From an uncultured Rhodospirillaceae bacterium (GTDB taxonomy: Bacteria > Pseudomonadota > Alphaproteobacteria > UBA9219): a DNA stretch of 64,000 nucleotides. The translations under genes were made by a program, and so were the position numbers. The notes below the pieces were generated by a model. The model was not told the DNA's origin, did not search any database, and saw only the letters and a list, made by a program, of their open reading frames with translations. Positions 3,255-46,935 of the stretch are shown piece after piece. The first letter of the stretch is position 1. The number at the start of each line of letters is the position of its first letter. Where the stretch lies: NCBI GenBank assembly GCA_964626265.1, contig CAZVCG010000004.1, forward strand, positions 5,713-69,712, in the 5' to 3' direction.

Positions 3255-5114
3255 ATGACCGAAGAACGCATGGCCTTTAAGGCCGAAGTCAGCCGCCTGC
3301 TCGACATCGTCGTCCATTCGCTTTACAGCGAAAAAGAGATTTTTCTGCGCGAGTTGATCTCCAACGCCTCTGACGCCTGCGACAAGTTGCGATATGAGGC
3401 CCTCACCCGCCCCGAGCTTACGGACGATGATCCCGACTATAAAATAACCATAACGACCGACCGCAAAGCCCGTACCATTACGGTTTCCGACAACGGCATC
3501 GGCATGACAAAGGACGAGTTGGTGGAGAACCTAGGCACGATCGCGCGTTCCGGCACGCTCGATTTTCTGAAGAAACTTGAGGAGTCCAAACAAAAGCCGG
3601 ATATGAGCGTCATCGGGCAATTCGGCGTCGGCTTCTATGCGTCGTTCATGGTCGCTCAAATGGTCGAAGTCCGTTCGCGCAAGGCGGGGAGCGAAGAGTC
3701 ATGGGCTTGGGAATCCGATGGCCGGGGCGAATTCTCGGTCGAAGTTGATAGCAAAAAAACGCGCGGCACAGACGTTACGCTTTATCTCAAGCAAGGCGAA
3801 GACGAATTCCTGAAGGAAGACAGGCTTCGCGCTGTTATAACCCGCTATTCGGATCATCTCGCGCTACCGATCTATCTCAACGACGACCCGAAGCCCGTCA
3901 ACCGCGCTAGCGCCCTATGGATGCGGCCGAAAAGCGAGATCACATCCGAACAATATAATGAGTTTTATCATCATGTCGCGCATGCCTTCGAGGAACCTGC
4001 CCTGACGATGCACTGGAAGGCCGAAGGCAAGATCGAATATACGGGCCTGCTCTATGTTCCGGGCACGAAGCCTTACGACCTTTTCGATCCGCGCCGTCGT
4101 CACAGTGTCAAGCTCTACGTCAAACGGGTATTCATCACCGACCACGCCGATGGCCTTATCCCCCCCTACTTGCGCTTTCTGCGCGGTCTTGTGGACAGCG
4201 AAGATCTGCCGCTTAACGTCAGCCGCGAAATGCTGCAATATAGCCCGATGCTCGCCAAAATTCGCCAAGGCGTAGTGAGAAAGGTTCTGGGCGACTTCGC
4301 CAAACTGGCCGACGACAAGGAAAAGTTCAAAACATTCTGGATAAACTTTGGCGCAGTTATTAAGGAAGGCCTTTACGAAGACCAGGACCACCGAGACCTG
4401 CTTTTAAAAGTCGTCCATGCCCCTTCGACTCATGACGGTTCGCTAACATCGCTCGCCGATTACGTCTCCCGCATGAAGGATGGCCAGGACGCTATCTACT
4501 ATATCAACGGCGACAATCTGCAGGCGCTCGCCTGCAGCCCGCATCTTGAAGGCTTCCGCGCGCGTGGCATCGAAGTCTTGCTACTAACCGATCAAGTCGA
4601 CGATTTCTGGCCCACTTCAGTTAGCGAATATCAGGGTAAGAAGTTTAAATCCGTCACTCGCGCAGGGCAAGACCTCAGCAAATGGCCGCTCGAGGACGAA
4701 AAGAGCAAAAAGAAAGACACAGAAGAAACGCCTGCGGCCGACCTCGCCTCGCTCATCGCGCTGATGAAGCTGACCCTCGGCGAACATGTCAAGGATGTGC
4801 GCGAGTCCAAGCGTCTGACCGACAGCCCCGTTTGCCTTGCTGCCGACGAAGGTGACATCGACATTCACCTTGAGCGCTTTTTGAAACAGCACAATCAGTT
4901 GAACGTGCCAACCCAACGCATTCTGGAAATCAACCCGCGCCATGCGCTTATCCGCAAGATGGCGGAACGCGCGTCAAAAGACGGCGCAAAAACCGAACTT
5001 GAAGACCTGATCGTGCTCTTGCTGGATCAGGCTCGGCTGCTGGAAGGCGAAACCATCGCCGATCCTGCCGGCTTCGGAAAACGGTTGGGCAATCTTCTTT
5101 CGAAATTATTTTAG
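3255..5114 (+). CDS. htpG: Molecular chaperone HtpG (Hsp90)
   Basis: N-terminal [40 protein letters not shown] and [27 protein letters not shown] motifs; 619 aa. Confidence 0.95.
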
Positions 5115-6790
5115 GCCGCCCTTATCTTCGCGATAAATCCATCGACGATGGAGCGTAATGTTTCGGACTCGCGCGACAACTGGTTGGCAGCGCTAAGCAC
5201 CTGACTTGAAGACGCGCCAGCTTCATGGGCGGCTTTCGTCACCCCGCTGATATTCCGCGAAACCTCGTCCGTGCCTTGCGAGGCTTGCTGGACATTCCGC
5301 GTAATTTCCCGTGTCGCCGCCCCCTGCTCCTCGACAGCCGAAGCTATGGTTGTCGAAATCTCATTCACTTTTTTAATCGTTTCCGTGATGCCGACAATCG
5401 CTTCGACGGCGTTCTTGGTCTGCGTTTGCACATCGCCGATCTGGTTCGTGATGTCCTGAGCGGCGTTGGCCGCTTGATTGGCGAGGTTTTTGACTTCCGT
5501 CGCCACCACGGCGAACCCGCGCCCTGCTTCACCGGCTCTCGCGGCTTCGATCGTTGCGTTAAGGGCCAATAGATTGACCTGTCCCGCTATATCTTCGATC
5601 AATTTCACTACATTGCCGATGTTTTCGGCAGCCTTGTCTAGATTATGCATGACCTCGCTCGTGCCTTCGGCCTGTCGCACGCATTCCGATGCTACTCTGA
5701 CGGAATCCCCGATCTGGCGATTGATTTCGGCTATGGAGGCGTTTAATTCCTCAGCGGCTGAGGCAACAGTGTGGACATTTGACGAAGCCTGTTCGGTAGC
5801 GGCCGCGACAGCGGTTGCCTGCCGGCTGGTTTCCTCGGATATGGCGGCCATGGATTGCGCGTTGGATTGCATTTCCGTCGCGGCAGCCGATACGGTTGAA
5901 ACAACGCCCTTCACGCTCTGCTCGAATTCGTCGGCAGTTTTTAGCATTAGCGCACGTTGCTCTTGCTCCGCCCGAATCTTTTGGGCTTCGTTTTCTTTTT
6001 CCAGCCGCTCCATCTCTATCGCATTGGTTTTGAAGGTCCCCAAGGCTCGGGCCAAATCGCCGATTTCGTCACGATGATCCGTGTACTCGACCTCGATGGT
6101 CTTATCGCCCGTTGCCAAGCGTCCCATTGCGTTCGTTATCCTGTTCAAAGGCACAGTGATGCCACGGCTGACAAAAAGGGCTCCTCCCCCAATTAAAACC
6201 AGCAATAACAACGAAATGCTACCCACGAGGTAAAGATTTTCCATAAAAACTTCCTCGACATCATCGATATAGATGCCGGTTCCAATCACCCATCCCCAAG
6301 CCTTAAAAGGCTCGACATAGCTGATTTTCGGCGATGGTTTTGCATCCTTTGTTTTCGCCCAACGATAGTTCACATAACCACCGCCCTGTTGGGCAACCTC
6401 GATGATTTCCCGCATAAAATACTTGCCGTCTGGATCTTTTACGTCATAAAGCGATTTTCCGATGTTGGCAGAAACGGCATGCGCGAGAAGAACTCCCTGC
6501 TGGTCGTTGACCCAAATATAGTCTCCATTGCCATAGTCCATCTGGTTGATGGCATCCAGAGCCCTCTCCTGAGCCTCTTTCTCCGTTAACAGGCCTTCCT
6601 TTACGTGGGCGTAATAATCTTTGACGATGCCGTGCGCCACTTCGACGATATTTTTTGTCTTGTCTTGGCGGTCAAGGATCAAATTATCGTGAAGGTTGTG
6701 AAGGCCGATAACGCATACGGCAGCCATGCCAATAACCATAGCCACAACCACAAGCATTAAACGCTTTTCGATTTTCAACTGATGTAACAT
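5111..6790 (-). CDS. Methyl-accepting chemotaxis protein with periplasmic Cache-like sensor, HAMP and MCP signalling domains
   Basis: N-terminal TM, periplasmic domain, second TM, HAMP, then the MA domain with the highly conserved region ([30 protein letters not shown]). Overlaps the htpG stop by 4 nt, convergent. Confidence 0.9.
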
Positions 6791-21989: not shown

Positions 21990-22110
21990 ATTTCCCCTTA
22001 TGCATTGCCGGTTACGTTGCGCTTACAATATTAGGAATATAATTCTATCTTGCGGAAAAGTCACGCGTTTTGTTTGGTTAATGGGGGATTTTCAAAAATG
22101 CCTTCAATAT

Positions 22111-22243
22111 GTCATCCCGACTAAAGTCGGGATCCAGTAGATATGGACAATATATTTCACTGTAATTGACACGTTGAACCGCCCAGACAAGGGCCAGTAA
22201 TTAATGGATGCTCCCTCTGGACCCCGACTTTCGTCGGGATGAC
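22111..22243. mobile_element. 133-bp palindromic repeat element (MITE/RPE-like), intergenic copy
   Basis: 25-nt palindromes in inverted orientation at both ends: 22111-22135 gtcatcccgactaaagtcgggatcc and 22219-22243 ggaccccgactttcgtcgggatgac. The internal sequence is related to the copy inside yejF. Confidence 0.55.
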
Positions 22244-22267
22244 GCCAATGGCAGCGCCTCCCTAGAC

Positions 22268-23905
22268 TTACTCGGCCAGTTTCTTCGCGACGTAGGCGCG
22301 GACTTTGTCAAGCGTGACGCGTTCCTGCTGCGCCGTGTCGCGGTCGCGGATCGTGACGGCCTGATCCTTGAGCGTGTCGCCGTCGATGGTGACGCAATAC
22401 GGCGTGCCGCATTCGTCCATACGGGCGTAGCGCTTGCCGATGGATTGCTTGGCGTCGTACTGGCACATGTAATCCTTGCGCAAGTCCATATAAAGCTTTT
22501 CGGCGACTTCGGGCATCCCGTCCTTGTTGACGAGCGGGAAGATGCCCATCTTGACCGGCGCGAGGGACGGCTTGATCTTGAGCCATTCCGGCGACGGACG
22601 GCTTTCGTCGTATTGATAAGCTTCGCACAGCAAGACCAGCACGCCGCGCGTCAGGCCGCTCGACGGCTCGACGACATGCGGCACATAGCGGCGGTTCGCT
22701 TCCTGATCGAAGTAGTCCAGCTTTTGCTTGCTGAACGTCTGGTGCTGCGTAAGGTCGTAATCGGTGCGATACGCCACGCCTTCCAGTTCGCCGAAGCCCG
22801 GCGACGTGAACGGGTATTTGTATTCGATGTCGGATGTGCCTTTGGAATAATGCGCGAGGTCTTGCGGCGCAATAATATGGCGGAACAGGTTTTCCGCCTT
22901 GACGCCGCAGCTTTCCCACCATTTCATGCGCAAGGCCACCCAGAACTCGTACCATGACAGGCCGTCTTCGGGCGCGCAGAAGAACTCGATCTCCATCTGC
23001 TCGAACTCGCGCACGCGGAAGATGAAGTTGCGCGGCGTGACTTCGTTGCGGAACGCCTTGCCGATTTGCGCGACGCCGAACGGGATCTTCACGCGGCAGG
23101 TATCGACGATATTCTTGTATTGCAGAAAGATGCCCTGCGCCGTTTCGGGCCGGAGATAGACTTTGCTGGCCTCGTCCTGAAGAACGCCCACGTGCGATTC
23201 AAACATCAGGTTGAACATGCGCGGCTCTGTCAAATCGCCGCCGCATTCGGGACAAGGCATGATAAGGCCCGTTTGCGCTTTTTGTTCCGTGGCCAGATAA
23301 CGTAGCAACTCAATTAAAGGCAGCGGCGACGGCGTATCCTTCTTATCCTCAACCAGCCATGACAGCGTGACCTGGGGATTTCTGACTAGCGCAAGACCGG
23401 GAGCCAGTTTTTTGCCTTTCTTCTGCGCCCATTGCAGGGCGGCTCCGGAGTCAAAAACGACTATGCTTCTCAATAAGGCGCCAAGCTCCAGAGAGTCCAC
23501 GGCAGCAACCTTCATGGCATCCGCAAACGATTTGACCCACTCGGCTTCATGAAGCATGTCCTCGACATGATCGGCGCGGAAAAGCTTTTTGCACTTGCGG
23601 CATGTTTGCATCGGATCGGCAAAACCGCCGACGTGGCCCGAGGCGTGCCACGTGGTCGGGTGCTGGATGATCGTGCTGTCGAGGCCGAGGATCGACATCG
23701 GCTTGCCGTCAGGGCCAAGCGGCGGACATTCCACCGTTTCGCGCCACCACTTGTCGCGCAGGTGGTTCTTGAGCTGCGTGCCGAGCGGGCCGAAATCCCA
23801 GAAACCGTTCAAACCGCCGTAAATCTCCGAGGCGGGATAAATAAACCCGCGGCGTTTGCACAAGGAGACAATGCGGTTCATGAGAGGCGTTTCGGGGGCG
23901 GCCAT
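22268..23905 (-). CDS. glyQS: Glycine--tRNA ligase, homodimeric alpha2 type
   Basis: N-terminal IVSLCKRRGFIYPASEIYGG..G.WD.GPLG is the class II alpha2 GlyRS signature, with an anticodon-binding C-terminus. Start set at ATG 23905; the track ORF is 105 nt longer. Confidence 0.85.
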   Translation of the reverse strand: MAAPETPLMNRIVSLCKRRGFIYPASEIYGGLNGFWDFGPLGTQLKNHLRDKWWRETVECPPLGPDGKPMSILGLDSTIIQHPTTWHASGHVGGFADPMQTCRKCKKLFRADHVEDMLHEAEWVKSFADAMKVAAVDSLELGALLRSIVVFDSGAALQWAQKKGKKLAPGLALVRNPQVTLSWLVEDKKDTPSPLPLIELLRYLATEQKAQTGLIMPCPECGGDLTEPRMFNLMFESHVGVLQDEASKVYLRPETAQGIFLQYKNIVDTCRVKIPFGVAQIGKAFRNEVTPRNFIFRVREFEQMEIEFFCAPEDGLSWYEFWVALRMKWWESCGVKAENLFRHIIAPQDLAHYSKGTSDIEYKYPFTSPGFGELEGVAYRTDYDLTQHQTFSKQKLDYFDQEANRRYVPHVVEPSSGLTRGVLVLLCEAYQYDESRPSPEWLKIKPSLAPVKMGIFPLVNKDGMPEVAEKLYMDLRKDYMCQYDAKQSIGKRYARMDECGTPYCVTIDGDTLKDQAVTIRDRDTAQQERVTLDKVRAYVAKKLAE

Positions 23906-24002
23906 ATGATGTCCTTTACATAAGTGCGTGTTAGAAACGCCCAGCTTATCAAGACTTTGGGCCCAAGCCAATGGGGGTTTTAGCGTTGAAAAAGCCTTAA
24001 AA

Positions 24003-24827
24003 TCAAGCAAGGCGGGCGTCGGCTTCCTTGATTTGCTTTTGCAGGGCGCGCCACGCGATGCTGCTCACGATGCCGTGCCAGAAATAATGGCCGATGAAGC
24101 CGCAGGCTTTCAGGATCATGGCGACGATGCGGTCCATGTCCTGCCGCGTGTAAGGCGTGAACGCGCGCGTGAGATAAGCGTCGGCGCAGGCCTGGCGTTT
24201 ATAGGGATAGCCGTCCGGCGCATTGGAGGCGTGATAGGCGAACGCCAGCTCATCGTCGCCGGACTCCTTAATGCGTTCGATAGCGACCCGGAAACGTTTC
24301 AGGCGGCTCATTTTCTCATGTTTTACGTAGCCCGTGAGGTGGCTGTAGAACATAGCATAGTGCTTGAACTCGTCGCCCGCGATGTTATGGCAGATCGCTT
24401 TCAGGAGCGGCTCGTCCGTCGCGCGGCCAAGCGCAGTGTAATAGGAACTTGTTCCGACCTCGACAACGCAGCGGGAAACTAACTCGCCTGCGCGTGAACC
24501 GCGCGAGGATTGGCTGGCCGCAACGTCGATTTTGTGCCCGTCCTTGTATCGCGCGAAAGCCTTGCCGAATTTGAACGACGGATCGGCGATCTGCGCGTAG
24601 CGGCCCAGCGTTTCGCCGTGCTGGCGTTCTTCCGCCGCCCAGTAGCTGACGGCGCGCTGAAAGATGGGGTCGTCGGCGAAAACGTGATTAAGGTATTGCT
24701 CATAGTCGTCCGCGCCGTATTCGACCATGGCGGCGGCTTTGACGATCATCAAATGGTCGGAATTGAGTCTTTTGGGATCAAAAGAGTCCCATGGCAGGTC
24801 GTCGATGGTCCAGCGTTCTTTCTTCAT
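24003..24827 (-). CDS. Ferritin-like diiron-carboxylate protein (acyl-ACP-desaturase-like)
   Basis: Two ExxH-type motifs, AAEERQHGE and AGDEFKHYA, reminiscent of the EENRHG / DExRHE motifs of soluble diiron desaturases and oxygenases. Confidence 0.5.
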   Translation of the reverse strand: MKKERWTIDDLPWDSFDPKRLNSDHLMIVKAAAMVEYGADDYEQYLNHVFADDPIFQRAVSYWAAEERQHGETLGRYAQIADPSFKFGKAFARYKDGHKIDVAASQSSRGSRAGELVSRCVVEVGTSSYYTALGRATDEPLLKAICHNIAGDEFKHYAMFYSHLTGYVKHEKMSRLKRFRVAIERIKESGDDELAFAYHASNAPDGYPYKRQACADAYLTRAFTPYTRQDMDRIVAMILKACGFIGHYFWHGIVSSIAWRALQKQIKEADARLA

Positions 24828-42094: not shown

Positions 42095-42994
42095 AAGGAA
42101 TTTTCCAATCATAATCGCCAATAAAACAATCAATCCGAAGTCGCGGTTGGCGCGAAAGCGTTTCAGGCAATTGGCCGGATCGTCCGGGTTCCATACCGTC
42201 AGCATCCACACCGCATGGGCCGCCGCGATACCTAGCAAAACAAGGAAACTCTTGCCAAGTCCTGCCGTTAGGCCCGCCAAGGCAATTAGAACGAGAGCGG
42301 CGGCATAAAATAGGGCGATCCATGGGCGCGACCTCTCGCCTAGTTTCAAAGCTAGCGATTTAACGCCGATCAGGGCGTCATCGCGTTTATCCTGATGTGC
42401 GTAGATTGTATCATACGCAAGAGTCCAGAACACGCCGCCGACATAAAGCAGGAAAGCAGGAATTCCGATGCCGCCATGGATGGCGGTCCAACCCATTAGT
42501 GCGCCCAAGTTGAACGCCAGTCCCAGGACGAGTTGAGGCCACCACGTCACGCGCTTGGCCAACGGGTACGTAAAAACCAGCAACAGCGACGCTATGCCAA
42601 GACCTATGGTAAAGCGGTTAAAGAGCAATAGAACGCCCAGGCCGATCAATAATAATAGGGCCAATAGTATGAGCGCTTGCCAAAGTTTAATATCGCCGCT
42701 AGCCAGTGGACGCGACCGTGTACGCTCGACCTTACGGTCGATGTCGCGGTCGTAAATGTCGTTGATTACGCTCCCTGCCCCGCGCATGACGACCGCGCCC
42801 AGAGCGAAGAGCATCAGATACCAAATGTCCGCTAAGGAACCACGCGCAAGCACAACGCCCCACCAGCAGGGCAAAAGAAGCAGCCATGTGCCGATGGGCC
42901 TGTCGAGCCGCATGAGCCGCGCATAAGGCCGGAGCCACGGGGAAAGCTGGCGTTCGACCCAGTCGTCGGCGGGAATGTCGGTGTGCATGGGCAT
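42092..42994 (-). CDS. ubiA: 4-hydroxybenzoate polyprenyltransferase
   Basis: UbiA-superfamily NDIYDRDID motif and multiple TM helices; 300 aa. Confidence 0.9.
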
Positions 42995-43052
42995 AATGAA
43001 GGTTTATACGACACCTTCTCTTTACCCGCTACCACGGCTATCATCCCGATTC

Positions 43053-44171
43053 ATGGCTGCCTATATCATCCGACGCTTACTCCTCATGATCCCGACGTTG
43101 TTCGGGATTATGGTGTTGAACTTTTTAATCGTTCAGGCCGCCCCCGGCGGTCCGATCGAGCAGATCGTGGCGCGTCTGCAAGGCACGGCGGTTGAAGCCA
43201 CAGCCCGCGTTTCAGGCAGCGCAGGCGGCGAAGCCGCCGCGCCCGGACAGCATATGCGCGAAAACAATGCCAGCGCTACGGCCTCTTCTCGCTATCGCGG
43301 CGCGCAAGGCGTCGATCCTGAACTGATCAAGGAACTGGAAAAGCAATTCGGGTTCGACCAGCCGTTGCACGTGCGCTTTTTCAAGATGATCGGCAATTAT
43401 CTGCGCTTCGACTTCGGCAAATCCTATTTCCGAGATCAAAAGGTCTTGGACCTTGTCATCAGCAAGATGCCAGTGTCGATGTCGCTGGGAATATGGACCA
43501 CGTTGATCATCTATCTTGTTTCCATACCGCTCGGCATCCGCAAGGCCGTCAAGGACGGCAGCAAGTTCGACATCTGGACAAGCGCGGCGATTATCGCGGG
43601 CTATGCCATCCCCAGTTTTCTGTTTGCCGTTTTATTGATCGTCTTATTCGCGGGCGGAAGGTACCTCGAATGGTTTCCGTTGCGTGGACTGACATCGGAC
43701 AATTGGGACGCGCTTAGCTGGCCTGCGCGAATAGCGGATTACTTCTGGCATATCACATTGCCTATCACGGCCATGGTCATAGGCGGGTTCGCCAGCCTGA
43801 CGATGCTCACGAAGAACTCGTTCCTTGACGAAATCAACAAGCAATACGTTTTGACGGCGCGGGCAAAGGGGCTTTCCGAAAACCGCGTGCTTTACGGGCA
43901 TGTGTTCCGCAACGCTATGCTTTTGGTGATTGCCGGATTCCCCAGCGCATTTATTGCCATTCTCTTTACTGGATCGTTATTGATAGAGGTTATTTTTTCG
44001 CTCGACGGGATGGGTCTTTTGGGTTTTGAGGCCGCGATAAACCGCGACTACCCCGTCATGTTCGGCACGCTGTATTTCTTTACGTTGTTAGGGTTAATTT
44101 TGAACCTTATCGGTGATTTAATGTATGTCGCCGTCGATCCGCGCATAGATTTCGAGACGCGCAGCACATGA
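43053..44171 (+). CDS. yejB: Peptide ABC transporter permease YejB
   Basis: Near-colinear with E. coli YejB ([29 protein letters not shown] ... [10 protein letters not shown]). Start at ATG 43053. Confidence 0.9.
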
Positions 44172-45220
44172 AACTATCCCCGTCAACATGGTCTCCTATC
44201 GCTCAGCGCCGCTGGAACAATTTCCGGGCGAATAAACGCGGGTTTTGGTCGTTTTGGATTTTCCTTTTCCTTTTCTTTCTTACGTTGGGGGCGGAGTTCG
44301 TCGCGAACGACAAGCCGCTTATCATTCACGTCGATCAAAGATATTACTTTCCAATTTTCAAATCCTATCCCGAAACGGCTTTCGGCGGCGATTTTGAAAC
44401 CGAAACGCGTTACCGCGATCCGTTCGTTAAAAAGCTGATCGAGGATAAAGGCGGGTGGATGGTTTGGCCGCTTATCCCCTATTCCTACAACACGATCAAT
44501 TACGAATTACAGCAACCAGCGCCTTCGCCGCCTTCATCCGAAAACTGGTTCGGCACGGACGATCAGGGCCGCGACGTTCTGGCGCGGATGATCTACGGCT
44601 ATCGTATTTCCATCCTCTTCGGCCTTACGCTTACGCTATTTTCGTCGCTTATCGGCATTTCCGCTGGCGCGGCGCAAGGCTATTTCGGCGGAAAGACCGA
44701 CCTGTTTTTGCAGCGTTTCATCGAAATCTGGCATGGAATGCCGGTGCTTTATCTGCTCATCATCATGGCGTCTCTCGTTCAGCCGAACTTTTGGTGGCTG
44801 CTGTGCCTGATGCTTTTGTTTTCATGGATGGAGCTTGTGAACGTCGTCCGCGCAGAGTTTCTGCGCGCGCGCAATCTGGATTTCGTCCGTGCAGCGAAAG
44901 CGTTGGGCGCGAAAGACGGCCTTATCATCTTTAAGCATGTCCTGCCCAACGCAATGGTGGCGACGATTACGTTTTTACCGTTTGTCACTAAGGCTTCCAT
45001 CACGACGCTGACAGCTCTGGATTTTCTAGGATTCGGATTGCCCCCGGGGTCGCCTTCGCTTGGCGAGTTGCTCAATCAAGGTAAAAACAACCTTCATGCG
45101 CCTTGGCTGGGCATAAGTGCGTTCGCCGTACTTGCGGTGATGTTAACCCTTTTGATCTTTATGGGCGAAGCCGTACGCGACGCGTTCGACGCACGGAAAG
45201 TGTTCGGGAAGCGGCAATGA
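44168..45220 (+). CDS. yejE: Peptide ABC transporter permease YejE
   Basis: RLSP..Q.RW..FR.N.RG.WS.WIFL.LF.L.L..E..ANDKPL matches the E. coli YejE N-terminus. Overlaps yejB by 4 nt. Confidence 0.9.
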
Positions 45221-46935
45221 CCCTACTCACCGTCGACAACCTGAGCGTGACGTTCGGACAAGGAAGCCAAGCCGTTCAGGCCGTGCGCAACATCAGCTTT
45301 TCGATGCAGCGCGGGGAAACGATGGCTTTGGTTGGCGAGTCCGGCTCCGGTAAATCGGTGACGGCGTTGTCGATCCTGCAACTCCTGCCCTACCCGCACG
45401 CGTGGCATCCCTCGGGGGCAATAACGTTTGATGAAAAGCTTCTCTTCAACGCTGACATGCCTAACGTGTCATTCCCGCGAAAGCGGGAATCAAGGGCGAG
45501 CGATAGCGAGCATGTGAGTCCACAAGAATTGACTCATATGGCCCGCCGACGCGGGCCACTGGATTCCCGCTTTCGCGGGAATGACATAGTAAATATAGAA
45601 ACCATCCGCGGGAACAGGATTGCGATGATCTTTCAGGAGCCGATGACGTCGCTTAACCCGCTTCACACGATCGAAAAACAGATCAACGAAGTCTTGTTCC
45701 TGCACAAGAACATGAATAAGGAACAGGCGCGAGCGCGGACGCTGGAGCTGCTTAAGCTTGTGGCTTTGCCAGACGCCGAAAAACGCCTGACAGCCTATCC
45801 TCATGAACTTTCTGGCGGCCAACGCCAACGCGTGATGATCGCGATGGCCTTGGCGAACGATCCGGACTTGCTCATCGCCGACGAGCCGACGACGGCGCTC
45901 GACGTGACGATACAGGCCCAAATTCTCGCTTTGCTGAAAGACCTTCAAAAGAAGCTTGGGATGGCGTTACTGCTCATTACGCATGACCTCGGCATTGTGC
46001 GTCATATGGCCGACAAGGTTTGCGTTATGCAACATGGCGAAATTGTCGAGCAAGGCGATGCAAATGAAGTATTCACACGACCGCGTCATCCCTACACGCA
46101 AATGCTATTGGCGGCGGAACCAAAGGGCCAAGCGTTGCCTGTTGACGCCGATGCTCCGGAAGTTTTCAGCGGCACGAATGTCAAAGTCCACTTTCCGATC
46201 AAGAAGGGCGTGTTGCGTAAGACGGTCGATTTTGTCCGCGCCGTGGACGGCGTTACGCTTAAGGTCCGGGCCGGAGAAACTGTCGGCGTGGTGGGCGAGT
46301 CAGGCTCCGGCAAAACGACGTTAGGGCTGGCGTTGTTGCGGTTGACGTCTTCGCAAGGCGCACTGGTTTTTTCGGGGCAGAATATCTCCGCATTGAATAA
46401 CGCGGACGTAAGACCGCTGCGCAAATCCATGCAAATGGTGTTTCAAGACCCCTATGGCAGCCTTAGTCCACGCATGACCATCGGCGACATTGTAGCCGAA
46501 GGCCTGGATATACATAAACTTTATCAGTCAGCTACGGATCGAGCTCAACGCATAGAAAATGCGTTGCAGGAAGTGGGGCTCGATTCCTCCATGCGCGACA
46601 GATATCCGCACGAGTTTTCCGGCGGCCAGCGCCAACGCATCGCCATCGCGCGCGCGATGATTTTGAATCCCAAGTTTGTAGTGCTGGACGAACCGACTTC
46701 CGCGCTCGATATGTCGGTGCAAGCGCAAATCGTGGACTTGCTGCGCGACCTGCAACAACGGCACGGCCTCGCCTATCTCTTCATCAGCCACGATTTGCGC
46801 GTGGTGAAGGCATTGTCGAACCACATCATCGTGATGAAAGCGGGCAAGGTCGTCGAACAGGGGCCTGCGAACGATGTGTTCACCTCGCCCAAGGAAGAGT
46901 ATACGCAGACGTTGCTGAAAGCAGCGCTTAGTTAG
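45217..46935 (+). CDS. yejF: Peptide ABC transporter ATP-binding protein YejF (tandem ATPase domains), carrying an in-frame ~40-aa insertion
   Basis: Two Walker A motifs (GESGSGKS twice), two LSGGQRQR signatures, and ATGA overlap with yejE. It is 572 aa, about 43 aa longer than E. coli YejF. Confidence 0.9.
45455..45600. mobile_element. ~118-bp palindromic repeat element (MITE/RPE-like) inserted in frame within yejF
   Basis: Inverted 25-nt palindromic termini at 45468-45492 gtcattcccgcgaaagcgggaatca and 45561-45585 ggattcccgctttcgcgggaatgac. The internal sequence is similar to the intergenic copy at 22111-22243. Translated as ...[39 protein letters not shown]... Confidence 0.55.

Follow-up and report, generated by a model that had tools for sequence, protein, structure and literature searches.

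CGTC-1 REPs are defined by an unpaired terminal CGTC (with TGTC and CCTC variants), an 8-bp stem that starts with A-T residues, a 4-nt loop, and a short unpaired tail with the consensus CCA (PMC3733652). They are repeated many times in their host genomes, predominantly those of Alphaproteobacteria, and they occur mainly as head-to-head dimers around spacers of 20 to 100 bp that are often conserved. Di Nocera, De Gregorio, and Rocco (2013) placed dRS3 and the Rickettsia conorii elements RPE-6 (CGTC-1) and RPE-4 (CGTC-4) among the CGTC REPs, catalogued intragenic copies that included translated dimers encoding 20 to 30 amino acids, and found no transposase tied to these repeats (PMC3733652). In Neisseria the repeat is known as dRS3 or NTS, for which a consensus of CGTCATTCCCGCGMAVGCGGGAATCYRG with at most one mismatch has been given, together with a broader search pattern for the Ssn-related motif (SRM), HGTCWYN(0-2)YYVSBRHN(0-5)WNVSBRGN(0-2)RNCYNB (PMC11893778, Nat Commun 2025). 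Ssn itself is a small single-domain GIY-YIG nuclease (cd10448), with a gene that is spatially associated with these motifs, and it cuts single-stranded DNA just upstream of each NTS; the same paper demonstrated this cleavage and an effect on transformation, and noted an NTS-ssnA-NTS arrangement as insertion-sequence-like (PMC11893778). Two further groups of repeats invite comparison. The Rickettsia palindromic elements (RPEs) of Ogata et al. (2000), to whom both PMC3733652 and PMC10969869 refer, comprise the defined families RPE-1 to RPE-10 of that genus; the bacterial MITEs are now and then fused in frame to host open reading frames (reviewed in PMC10969869).

The window analyzed here is a single stretch of 64 kb of DNA. 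Within it, yejF (45217 to 46935, plus strand) is the last gene of yejB-yejE-yejF and encodes a fused double ABC ATPase of 572 amino acids. The gene contains a 120-bp element (45467 to 45586, plus strand), equal to 40 codons and corresponding to YejF residues 84 to 124, in which two CGTC-1 REP hairpins, arranged as a head-to-head dimer, flank a spacer of 64 bp. The left unit (45467 to 45494, plus strand) consists of the head TGTC, the stem ATTCCCGC, the loop GAAA, the stem GCGGGAAT, and the tail CAA(G); the right unit (45559 to 45586, minus strand) is inverted, reads TGTCATTCCCGCGAAAGCGGGAATCCAG on the minus strand, and has the tail CCA. A repeat search of the window recovered the two arms as 28-nt sequences that are 96% complementary and 64 nt apart. 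Both form the perfect hairpin ATTCCCGC-GAAA-GCGGGAAT, with an 8-bp stem, a 4-nt loop, and no mismatches, and the window has two occurrences of this hairpin pattern where 0.09 would be expected, a count reached in 0 of 100 shuffles. Next to the left unit the spacer carries the motif GCGAGCGATAGCGAGCATGTGAGTC (45496 to 45520, plus strand), a subfamily marker that is invariant in alignments A4 and A5. Next to the right unit it carries the hairpin GGCCCGC-CGAC-GCGGGCC (45540 to 45557, plus strand), recognized from the fold and from alignments with other copies, in which GCCGCGC-AGAC-GCGCGGC can stand at the same place with the pairing kept.

A preliminary description of this DNA had reported inverted palindromic ends within yejF at 45455 to 45600, with the reading frame open throughout. 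Direct reading and the repeat search confirmed the sequence and its ends, and the yejF frame runs across the whole element, 40 codons without a stop. Folding of a 136-nt stretch over the element gave stable structures both as RNA (−83 kcal/mol, z = −11.8) and as DNA (−49.9 kcal/mol, z = −12.0). We set the boundaries of the element from the palindrome and the protein alignment; excessive divergence of the loop prevented a clean DNA alignment to the empty site of L001. Neither the window copy nor any copy read in L126 to L134 and L135 to L137 shows a target-site duplication at its junctions, and no U-tract or other terminator feature lies 3′ of the hairpin. An Rfam search with the element returned nothing at threshold; the sub-threshold match to FtrB (E = 0.11) was taken as chance.

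The window holds two CGTC-type dimers (four units), one of the two in frame. The other, element B (22110 to 22244), is an intergenic CGTC-1 head-to-head dimer of 135 bp. A minus-strand gene for a class II aminoacyl-tRNA synthetase (22268 to 24010) has its stop codon 25 nt away, with the element on the downstream side. The units of element B (22110 to 22136, plus strand; 22218 to 22244, minus strand) have the heads TGTC and CGTC, the stem ATCCCGAC, a TAAA or GAAA loop, the stem GTCGGGAT, and the tail CCA, and the repeat search gave arms at 22111 to 22137 and 22217 to 22243 (27 nt, 93% complementary, 79 nt apart). The preliminary description had regarded this element as a second copy with a recognizably related interior. 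The dimer is real, and the relatedness of the interiors is only weakly supported: the best local alignment with the yejF element scores 20, a value reached in 13 of 2,000 shuffles (p about 0.007), and the similarity appears in the plus orientation only. The two belong to one family but have diverged too far to be called close copies. A plasmid search with element B gave no match, and in Rfam it matched, over its full length but at a sub-threshold score, the Wolbachia sRNA family WsnRNA46, which is shaped like a CGTC-type dimer.

Both window elements share all the structural features of CGTC-1 REPs. TGTC stands at both outer ends of the yejF element, and TGTC and CGTC at those of element B; stem, loop, and tail agree with the definition in both; and both are dimers whose arms, 64 and 79 nt apart, respectively, lie within the described range of spacers. 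The right arm of the yejF element departs from the NTS consensus at a single position and is an exact fit to the SRM pattern, whereas the left arm has two mismatches to the consensus and deviates from the SRM pattern at one position. Element B fits neither the NTS consensus at up to one mismatch nor the SRM pattern. As an inverted pair around a spacer of ∼60 nt, the yejF element resembles a unit of the mosaic arrays of Neisseria, but it is one unit within a gene. Neisseria intergenic mosaic elements (NIME) are intergenic arrays of units that are each bounded by dRS3, for which reason we rejected this designation. The GTAG REP/RAYT system, which is marked by a GTAG head and an association with a RAYT (IS200/IS605-like) gene, was rejected as well, since the window heads are TGTC or CGTC and the GTAG head is absent. 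Judged by these sequence features, the repeat in yejF is a described CGTC-1 REP, a kind that has also been named dRS3/NTS in Neisseria and Ssn-related motif. The earlier suggestion of a possibly undescribed family therefore does not stand, because the ends fit the published CGTC-1 REP and one of them fits both the NTS and the SRM. The accompanying comparison with Rickettsia was well founded, RPE-6 and RPE-4 having been put in the same CGTC REP superfamily (PMC3733652).

Some properties set the yejF element apart. The spacer GCGAGCGATAGCGAGCAT...GGCCCGC-NGAC-GCGGGCC and the uncultured hosts, which are Rhodospirillales-like metagenome-assembled genomes (MAGs), are not found in the available portions of PMC3733652, whose intragenic dimers typically encode 20 to 30 amino acids, compared to 40 in YejF. 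Relative to Neisseria NTS, the host is alphaproteobacterial and the window contains no ssn gene, and translated or intragenic copies are absent from the discussion in PMC11893778. Relative to RPEs, the genus and the spacer are different, and the link at the sequence level rests on the assignment of RPE-6 and RPE-4 in PMC3733652.

We scanned genomes and metagenomes for exact matches to the spacer motif GCGAGCGATAGCGAGCATGTGAGTC, which has 24 specified bases and one position N. The scan yielded 28 loci, 9 in genomes (6 of these in one MAG) and 19 in metagenomes, none of which came from the genome that contains the window. The related metagenome-assembled genome MAG_CA70 accounts for at least six exact-motif copies. 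Most of the 28 matches are intergenic, their hosts are other alphaproteobacterial MAGs, and the spacer is conserved over nine aligned copies (alignment A5). By alignment, the yejF element is homologous, spacer included, to these mostly intergenic copies in other MAGs. Peptide matches P0121 to P0123 and their underlying DNA are also homologous to the element. One of the 28 adjoins a small GIY-YIG nuclease gene, and another lies in prmC of L144, in frame and in the same frame as in yejF, and provides a second case for this spacer subfamily of the in-frame insertion typical of RPEs. The annotated full-length ileS of Sphingopyxis indica, a cultured isolate, contains an in-frame CGTC dimer. RPEs are likewise palindromic repeats found in frame in unrelated housekeeping genes that stay functional, and they likewise add a hydrophilic peptide to the protein; the classic translated member, RPE-1, is longer, at about 150 bp. 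In yejF the left unit is read as (V)SFPRKRESR and the right unit, on the plus strand, as LDSRFRGND(I). A literature search for such repeat-encoded peptides found no paper.

The host gene is intact. All YejF motifs are conserved, and a dN/dS of 0.056 relative to L001 over 527 codons indicates that yejF is under strong purifying selection and remains functional. The protein scores 728.6 bits against the NCBIfam YejF model NF011713, under the 834-bit equivalog cutoff; this profile has 529 positions, and most close YejF orthologues are about 527 to 536 amino acids long. Removing the element in silico leaves a YejF of 532 amino acids with a loop of normal length. Two of the six frames of the 120-bp element are stop-free, and yejF reads one of these two; from the open frame and the selection on yejF we infer that the insert is translated. 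The insertion site is in the first nucleotide-binding domain (NBD1), between its Walker A motif and its Q-loop. Mycobacterium tuberculosis OppD (8J5Q_D) aligns to YejF residues 3 to 59 and 128 to 286, and between these blocks YejF has 68 residues compared to 23 in the structure. In an AlphaFold model of YejF (mean pLDDT, 83), values below 50 are confined to residues 83 to 124 and 412 to 414, and the insert is the sole long disordered stretch. The insert falls in a variable turn between Walker A and the Q-loop and is predicted to form a disordered loop there. The preliminary description's account of a palindromic repeat inserted in frame into a housekeeping gene was upheld, the segment being repeat derived and the gene conserved and selected.

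The nearest YejF orthologue in the protein collection searched (P0002, 527 amino acids) is 83% identical overall and 90% identical over aligned residues, and no nearer YejF was found there. Neither it nor most other orthologues have the ∼40-residue segment, which is therefore lineage specific, as had been supposed. An enlarged loop is present at the same place in 13 of 118 close YejF orthologues. These carriers are dispersed through the tree, most of them beside sisters that have no insert; because the tree is a quick neighbor-joining one, any count of independent gains is only approximate. Where we read the DNA, the loop inserts of L135, L136, and L137 proved to be CGTC dimers and that of L158 a different palindrome, of the CCCCTCCCC type. 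The REP hairpin was also seen as a single unit, in P0009 and P0046. The new part of this work is these repeated hits on one YejF loop in relatives by at least two repeat classes, a novelty that we regard as modest. As a separate observation, REP dimers lie between yej genes in L135 (9889 to 9977), L136 (8835 to 8941), and L158 (2762 to 2987).

Taken together, these data argue that the yejF element is a noncoding CGTC-1-type REP dimer that landed in frame and now contributes, on translation, a passenger loop of 40 residues, a reading to which we assign a probability of roughly 85%. A palindromic repeat would have entered yejF at a permissive NBD1 loop between Walker A and the Q-loop, read in one of the repeat's two stop-free frames, and its presence is probably neutral for the protein. 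The copy presumably survived because of this combination of a stop-free frame and a permissive loop, and the same filter would explain why repeats of at least two classes have hit this one loop again and again in relatives. The insert may instead have been put to use, either as an mRNA hairpin that tunes yejF expression through processing, stability, or ribosome pausing, or as a charged 40-residue loop that offers a new interaction or regulatory surface. A strong hairpin in a coding mRNA might carry a regulatory cost or find a use, and tuning of expression has been proposed for REPs and Correia elements. The very stable RNA fold, the still-perfect state of both hairpins, and the additional REP dimers between yej genes in three relatives would suit such a role; the recurrent enlargement of one loop could reflect selection, and the dimer-like shape of WsnRNA46 suggests that such units can be transcribed. 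We nevertheless consider a use for the insert doubtful. The loop inserts of different lineages are wholly unlike one another, be it in repeat class, length, or sequence; the majority of orthologues, with the nearest among them, have none; and disorder is predicted for the insert. Moreover, its subfamily is mostly intergenic and no terminator feature follows the hairpin.

Two other origins for the segment fit less well than a REP dimer that landed in frame. MITEs such as Correia/NEMIS, ERIC, and the Coxiella QMITE are likewise small, noncoding, and structured, with terminal inverted repeats, and the 28-nt inverted ends of the yejF element, its small size, and its several copies with variable interiors would be compatible with a decayed insertion sequence mobilized in trans by a DDE transposase with specificity for those ends. 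However, neither the window copy nor the other copies read have direct repeats at their junctions, and we found no related insertion sequence. Each end is an autonomous REP hairpin that also occurs singly, rather than a transposase-binding terminal repeat; the sole gene found beside a family copy encodes a GIY-YIG nuclease; and no transposase had been linked to CGTC repeats as of 2013 (PMC3733652). A classical MITE is therefore very improbable. That the segment is an ancestral YejF linker, palindromic by chance, or an assembly artifact or pseudogene lesion in a MAG, seems to us scarcely credible. The sequence does come from an assembly of an uncultured organism, an identical YejF was found on one 71-kb NCBI contig only, repeats can cause misjoins, and several orthologues also have long loops. 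Against this, the nearest and about 90% of close orthologues do not have the segment, its DNA is homologous to intergenic repeats of other genomes, the flanks continue one gene in one frame with the rest under strong purifying selection, and similar in-frame inserts occur in independent assemblies and in the ileS gene of cultured S. indica.

A landing in frame at a tolerant site leaves room for a stronger proposal, namely that the NBD1 turn after the first beta-hairpin of YejF is a true insertion hot spot. On this proposal, at least eight separate gains from at least two unrelated palindromic classes would fall within a few codons of one another, passive tolerance alone would be insufficient, and either a target preference or positive selection for a longer loop would be at work. 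A target preference would involve, for instance, local single-stranded DNA or structure in the yej operon, or homing beside the remnants of earlier repeats. We hold a true hot spot to be unlikely.

How the repeats spread may be connected with Ssn. Between rpoB and rpoC, L133 carries a full subfamily copy, a gene for a 99-amino-acid GIY-YIG protein adjoining it, and a degenerate copy on the other side; the protein consists of a single domain (PF01541, E = 2.9e-13) and is putatively Ssn-like. A six-frame motif scan of the 64-kb window found no Ssn-like gene, its only GIY-YIG protein being UvrC, and we noticed no gene resembling a transposase among the neighbors of the few family copies that we read. 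The absence of target-site duplications fits a REP-like route and not that of a classical cut-and-paste transposon. These observations weakly suggest that the repeats may be spread or maintained through single-stranded hairpin DNA with Ssn as a partner. To our knowledge, nobody has demonstrated mobilization of these repeats by Ssn.

The in-frame REP insertion in yejF is a real event of an already known kind, and it leaves current understanding unchanged. It does explain an odd 43-residue extension of a conserved ABC ATPase by a known repeat, and it extends the range of lineages with translated CGTC/NTS-type repeats to uncultured Alphaproteobacteria that are free-living. One spacer-defined subfamily is now physically linked to an Ssn-like nuclease gene, which bears on how CGTC repeats spread, given that no transposase was linked to them in 2013 (PMC3733652) and that Ssn was proposed in 2025 (PMC11893778). 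The YejF loop, enlarged repeatedly and independently, naturally maps one place at which the oligopeptide-type ABC ATPase fold is permissive. Such inserts can be flagged by the telltale peptides SFPRKRES..., ...LDSRFRGND, and IPAx..., which also flag many spurious small open reading frames called over intergenic copies. Finally, a hairpin scan of viral contigs returned, among the matches listed, mostly Neisseria-type arrays (seen, for instance, in L020 and L028), and the hairpin is widespread.

The yejF gene (45217-46935; an open frame of 572 codons) is the last of a yejB-yejE-yejF cluster, and within it lies a palindromic sequence that, across 45455-45600, reads as the preliminary description had given it. 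A repeat search of the window delimited the yejF element to two arms of 28 nt each (45467-45494 and 45559-45586) that are 96% complementary and have 64 nt between them. Each arm is a perfect hairpin by itself, ATTCCCGC-GAAA-GCGGGAAT, and this hairpin pattern occurs twice in the 64 kb, compared to 0.09 occurrences expected by chance. Folding, which the preliminary description had proposed, was carried out on a 136-nt stretch containing the element. The predicted RNA structure (-83 kcal/mol, z = -11.8) stood far above shuffled versions in stability, and the DNA fold gave z = -12.0 relative to shuffled versions. At exactly 120 bp, the element spans 40 codons; two of its six reading frames are free of stops, and yejF reads through one of them. 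A 152-aa minus-strand open reading frame (ORF; 45490-45948) overlaps yejF, spans the right hairpin, and terminates within the element; it is a repeat artefact and not a gene.

The top NCBIfam match of the yejF product is the YejF model (728.6 bits; equivalog cut-off, 834), and an identical protein is present in a single record, on an NCBI contig of 71 kb. The next relative, the 527-aa orthologue P0002, shares 83% identity overall (90% over aligned residues) and is without the 40-codon segment; its locus, L001, has the same gene order as the window (yejB, yejE, yejF, and a convergent ubiE-like methyltransferase gene). In-silico excision of the 120 bp yields a 532-aa protein, the usual length for the clade. 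As judged from these sequences, the segment is an insertion and not an ancestral linker, the outcome that the preliminary description had expected of an orthologue comparison. Between the window and the P0002 locus, yejF has a dN/dS of 0.056 over 527 codons, and therefore the gene is not decaying. In an AlphaFold model of the protein (input, 17 orthologues; mean pLDDT, 83), residues 83-124 are the sole long low-confidence stretch; this stretch, which matches the insert, is predicted to lack secondary structure. Among solved homologues the best is M. tuberculosis OppD (8J5Q chain D), whose alignment covers YejF residues 3-59 and 128-286 and leaves 68 YejF residues between the aligned blocks, compared to 23 in the structure. 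The alignment gap and the low-confidence stretch together place the insert in the turn between Walker A and the Q-loop of the first nucleotide-binding domain, where the preliminary description had guessed it would lie. The repeat thus sits in frame in a disordered loop, in a gene on which selection has been retained; we infer that it is a tolerated passenger. Upstream in the cluster, the longest yejB ORF (42975-44171, plus strand) encodes 398 aa, compared to the 371-372 aa called in relatives (L001, L136, and L137), and the true yejB start is probably further downstream.

The ends of the yejF element resemble the Neisseria dRS3 repeat, a likeness that we tested against the literature and the sequence. 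Di Nocera et al. 2013 define "CGTC-tagged" repetitive extragenic palindromes (REPs). In that paper, the CGTC-1 family has an unpaired CGTC (often TGTC) head, an 8-bp stem starting with A-T, a 4-nt loop, and a CCA-type tail; its units are mostly head-to-head dimers with conserved spacers of 20-100 bp, and CGTC REPs predominate in Alphaproteobacteria (PMC3733652). All four window hairpins, those of the yejF element and of a second repeat, element B, have this structure. The same paper equates CGTC-1 in Neisseria with dRS3, and CGTC-1 and CGTC-4 of Rickettsia conorii with the Rickettsia palindromic elements (RPEs) RPE-6 and RPE-4, respectively; it catalogues intragenic REPs, in which dimers typically add 20-30 aa and whose hosts include tRNA synthetase genes of Sphingopyxis alaskensis and Erythrobacter litoralis, and it reports that no transposase was found for CGTC repeats (PMC3733652). 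A 2025 paper on Ssn redefines about half of dRS3 copies as a 28-nt "NTS," CGTCATTCCCGCGMAVGCGGGAATCYRG, and gives a degenerate "Ssn-related motif" (SRM) (PMC11893778). The right arm of the yejF element differs from NTS at one position and is an exact match to the SRM pattern; the left arm differs from NTS at two positions. Because the hairpins fit the CGTC-1 definition and the right arm fits both NTS and SRM, the earlier suggestion of a "possibly undescribed" family has to be abandoned. The in-frame behavior claimed alongside it, and the Rickettsia parallel, were right, given the RPE-6 and RPE-4 correspondence, and such behavior is already described for the CGTC REP superfamily and for RPEs. 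What the element adds is a new host lineage and a subfamily-specific spacer within a described superfamily.

Other identities fared less well. None of the junctions read, whether of the window copy or of copies at other loci, shows a target-site duplication, and a classical MITE was rejected on this ground. A GTAG/RAYT REP was also rejected. Among the matches listed from a hairpin-pattern scan of viral contigs, two loci (L028 and L020) hold arrays of dRS3-bounded units in the same inverted-pair layout, which we take to be Neisseria NIME arrays; a Neisseria-type mosaic array was rejected as the identity of the yejF element. A GC-rich hairpin with a CGTC/TGTC-like head (CGTCCGCGCAGAGTTTCTGCGCGC) also lies within yejE, at 44845-44870 (+) in the window, where it encodes VRAEFLRAR, and at a similar position in a relative (L136, 9629-9654, +). 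With its 3-nt loop and a stem not beginning with AT, it has the look of a chance feature of the coding sequence rather than of a REP.

The 41-aa insert peptide, used as a query, matched three small "hypothetical proteins" (P0121-P0123), ORFs that gene callers in other assemblies have annotated over intergenic copies of the element. The DNA of these copies shares with the yejF element the left spacer motif GCGAGCGATAGCGAGCATNTGAGTC, a right spacer hairpin, and the REP after it. The motif alone has nine exact matches among species-representative genomes, six of them in one Alphaproteobacteria metagenome-assembled genome (MAG_CA70) and the remainder in Magnetospirillaceae, Rhodospirillaceae, and an unclassified proteobacterial assembly; JGI metagenomes hold 19 further matches. 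On this sequence evidence the yejF element belongs, along with its spacer, to a real family, and in an alignment of copies it is a member with a shortened center. Several copies carry paired changes that preserve the hairpin, with ATTCCGGC/GCCGGAAT replacing ATTCCCGC/GCGGGAAT or GCCGCGC/GCGCGGC replacing GGCCCGC/GCGGGCC. Most of the 32 motif-bearing places examined for gene context (L123 and L124 being one site) are between genes or just 5' of start codons. Two subfamily copies are clearly internal and in frame: the one in yejF and one in prmC (release-factor glutamine methyltransferase) at locus L144, a minus-strand ORF at ~4626-5603 (strand coordinates) of JGI contig Ga0181516_10001537. There the repeat is read in the same frame as in yejF (...EAVL[[36 protein letters not shown]]IRILDLGTGTG...), directly before the SAM-binding motif ILDLGTGTG, and the protein with its insert is still above the PrmC equivalog cut-off. 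Outside the subfamily, ileS on replicon pMC4 of the cultured isolate Sphingopyxis indica (NZ_CP076395.1) holds an in-frame, 77-bp CGTC-1 head-to-head dimer (L138, 2501-2577), translated as ...PDI[[27 protein letters not shown]]FKEK... within an annotated full-length CDS (isoleucine--tRNA ligase).

Element B (22110-22244), the second, intergenic element of the preliminary description, is real: the repeat search gave it arms of 27 nt that are 93% complementary, and it lies downstream of a class II aminoacyl-tRNA synthetase gene, 25 nt from the stop codon. The alignment score between its interior and that of the yejF element was matched by 13 of 2,000 shuffles, and it shares TTGAACCGCC with the family center; it is a more distant relative. 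Rfam RF02625 (WsnRNA46, Wolbachia sRNA 46) gave a full-length but subthreshold match to 22090-22262 (+), at 32.5 bits, where the gathering score is 65.3 (E = 7.7e-5). The WsnRNA46 consensus itself resembles a head-to-head REP dimer of the CGTC type, GuGuCauccgaGuggcugaCaCuGGgauCcaG ... CugGauuCCaGuGucagccaCucggauGaCa, and this "sRNA family" may be a transcribed REP dimer.

To survey the loop, we compared 118 YejF orthologues (64-100% identity) and scored as enlarged any stretch of >50 residues from Walker A to the Q-loop. Thirteen were enlarged, the usual length being 42-46 residues. In a neighbor-joining tree with the loop masked, carriers are scattered, and most have an insert-free sister (for example, P0001/P0002, P0004/P0006, P0021/P0039, and P0047/P0061). 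DNA confirmed palindromic repeats at the loop in four carriers. Three of these (L135, L136, and L137) have CGTC-type head-to-head dimers of unlike sequence and length, that of L137 with an additional partial head. The fourth (P0047; L158, 3225-3355) has an unrelated palindrome of CCCCTCCCC-CTTGC-GGGGAGGG hairpins, which encodes peptides such as PLPLAGRDREGG...PSPDPSREGRG. This second class is also found in P0007, P0054, and P0024 (alignment A2), in the last as a 58-aa insert in the second ATPase domain instead of the loop. The peptides assign about nine inserts to the CGTC type and three to the second class. The loop inserts all lie no more than a few codons apart and follow the strand ...F(D/E)xxx(I/L)x. 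Because different repeat classes, presumably with different machinery, share one loop, the simplest reading is a selection filter, in which insertions elsewhere would be lethal to the gene and the loop would tolerate anything in frame; a real target preference for the loop is a possible, if less simple, explanation of the same recurrence. The 2013 paper notes one case comparable to the recurrence in YejF, that of Xanthomonas recB, where different REPs occupy roughly one site (PMC3733652). Recurrent colonization of one loop by two repeat classes is a small new observation, with none found in the literature consulted on CGTC/Ssn repeats. The intergenic spacers of the yej operon in these relatives also carry CGTC-1 REP dimers (L135, 9889-9977; L136, 8835-8941 and 7452-7533; L158, 2762-2987). 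In L136, the 52-aa "gene" annotated in the yejB-yejE interval is such a dimer, and a 38-aa gene is called at 2739-2855 in the REP-rich yejE-yejF spacer of L158.

How the repeat reached yejF can be proposed more tentatively. SsnA, a 94-aa GIY-YIG nuclease, binds the hairpin and cuts single-stranded DNA just upstream of it, and ssn genes are often flanked by the motif in an insertion-sequence-like manner; Ssn is offered as a partner enzyme, with mobilization not demonstrated in that paper (PMC11893778). A head-to-head dimer would present one forward NTS per strand, at the 5' side, and cleavage of the Ssn type would then occur on opposite strands immediately beyond the element, a suggestive geometry from which we speculate that an Ssn-type route may have been used. 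No Ssn-like GIY-YIG gene was found within the 64-kb window. At locus L133 (uncultured proteobacterium, contig CAIJXG010000056.1; 6086-6720), the rpoB-rpoC spacer holds a full copy of the yejF-element subfamily (6086-6231), a 99-aa single-domain, Ssn-like GIY-YIG gene (6266-6565; PF01541, E = 2.9e-13), and, on the other side of that gene, a degenerate second repeat copy. The arrangement looks like an insertion sequence, and this physical link of the subfamily to an Ssn-like gene is a small new observation. The encoded protein is one of a very large family of ~95-aa proteins annotated as "GIY-YIG nuclease family," of which many are alphaproteobacterial.
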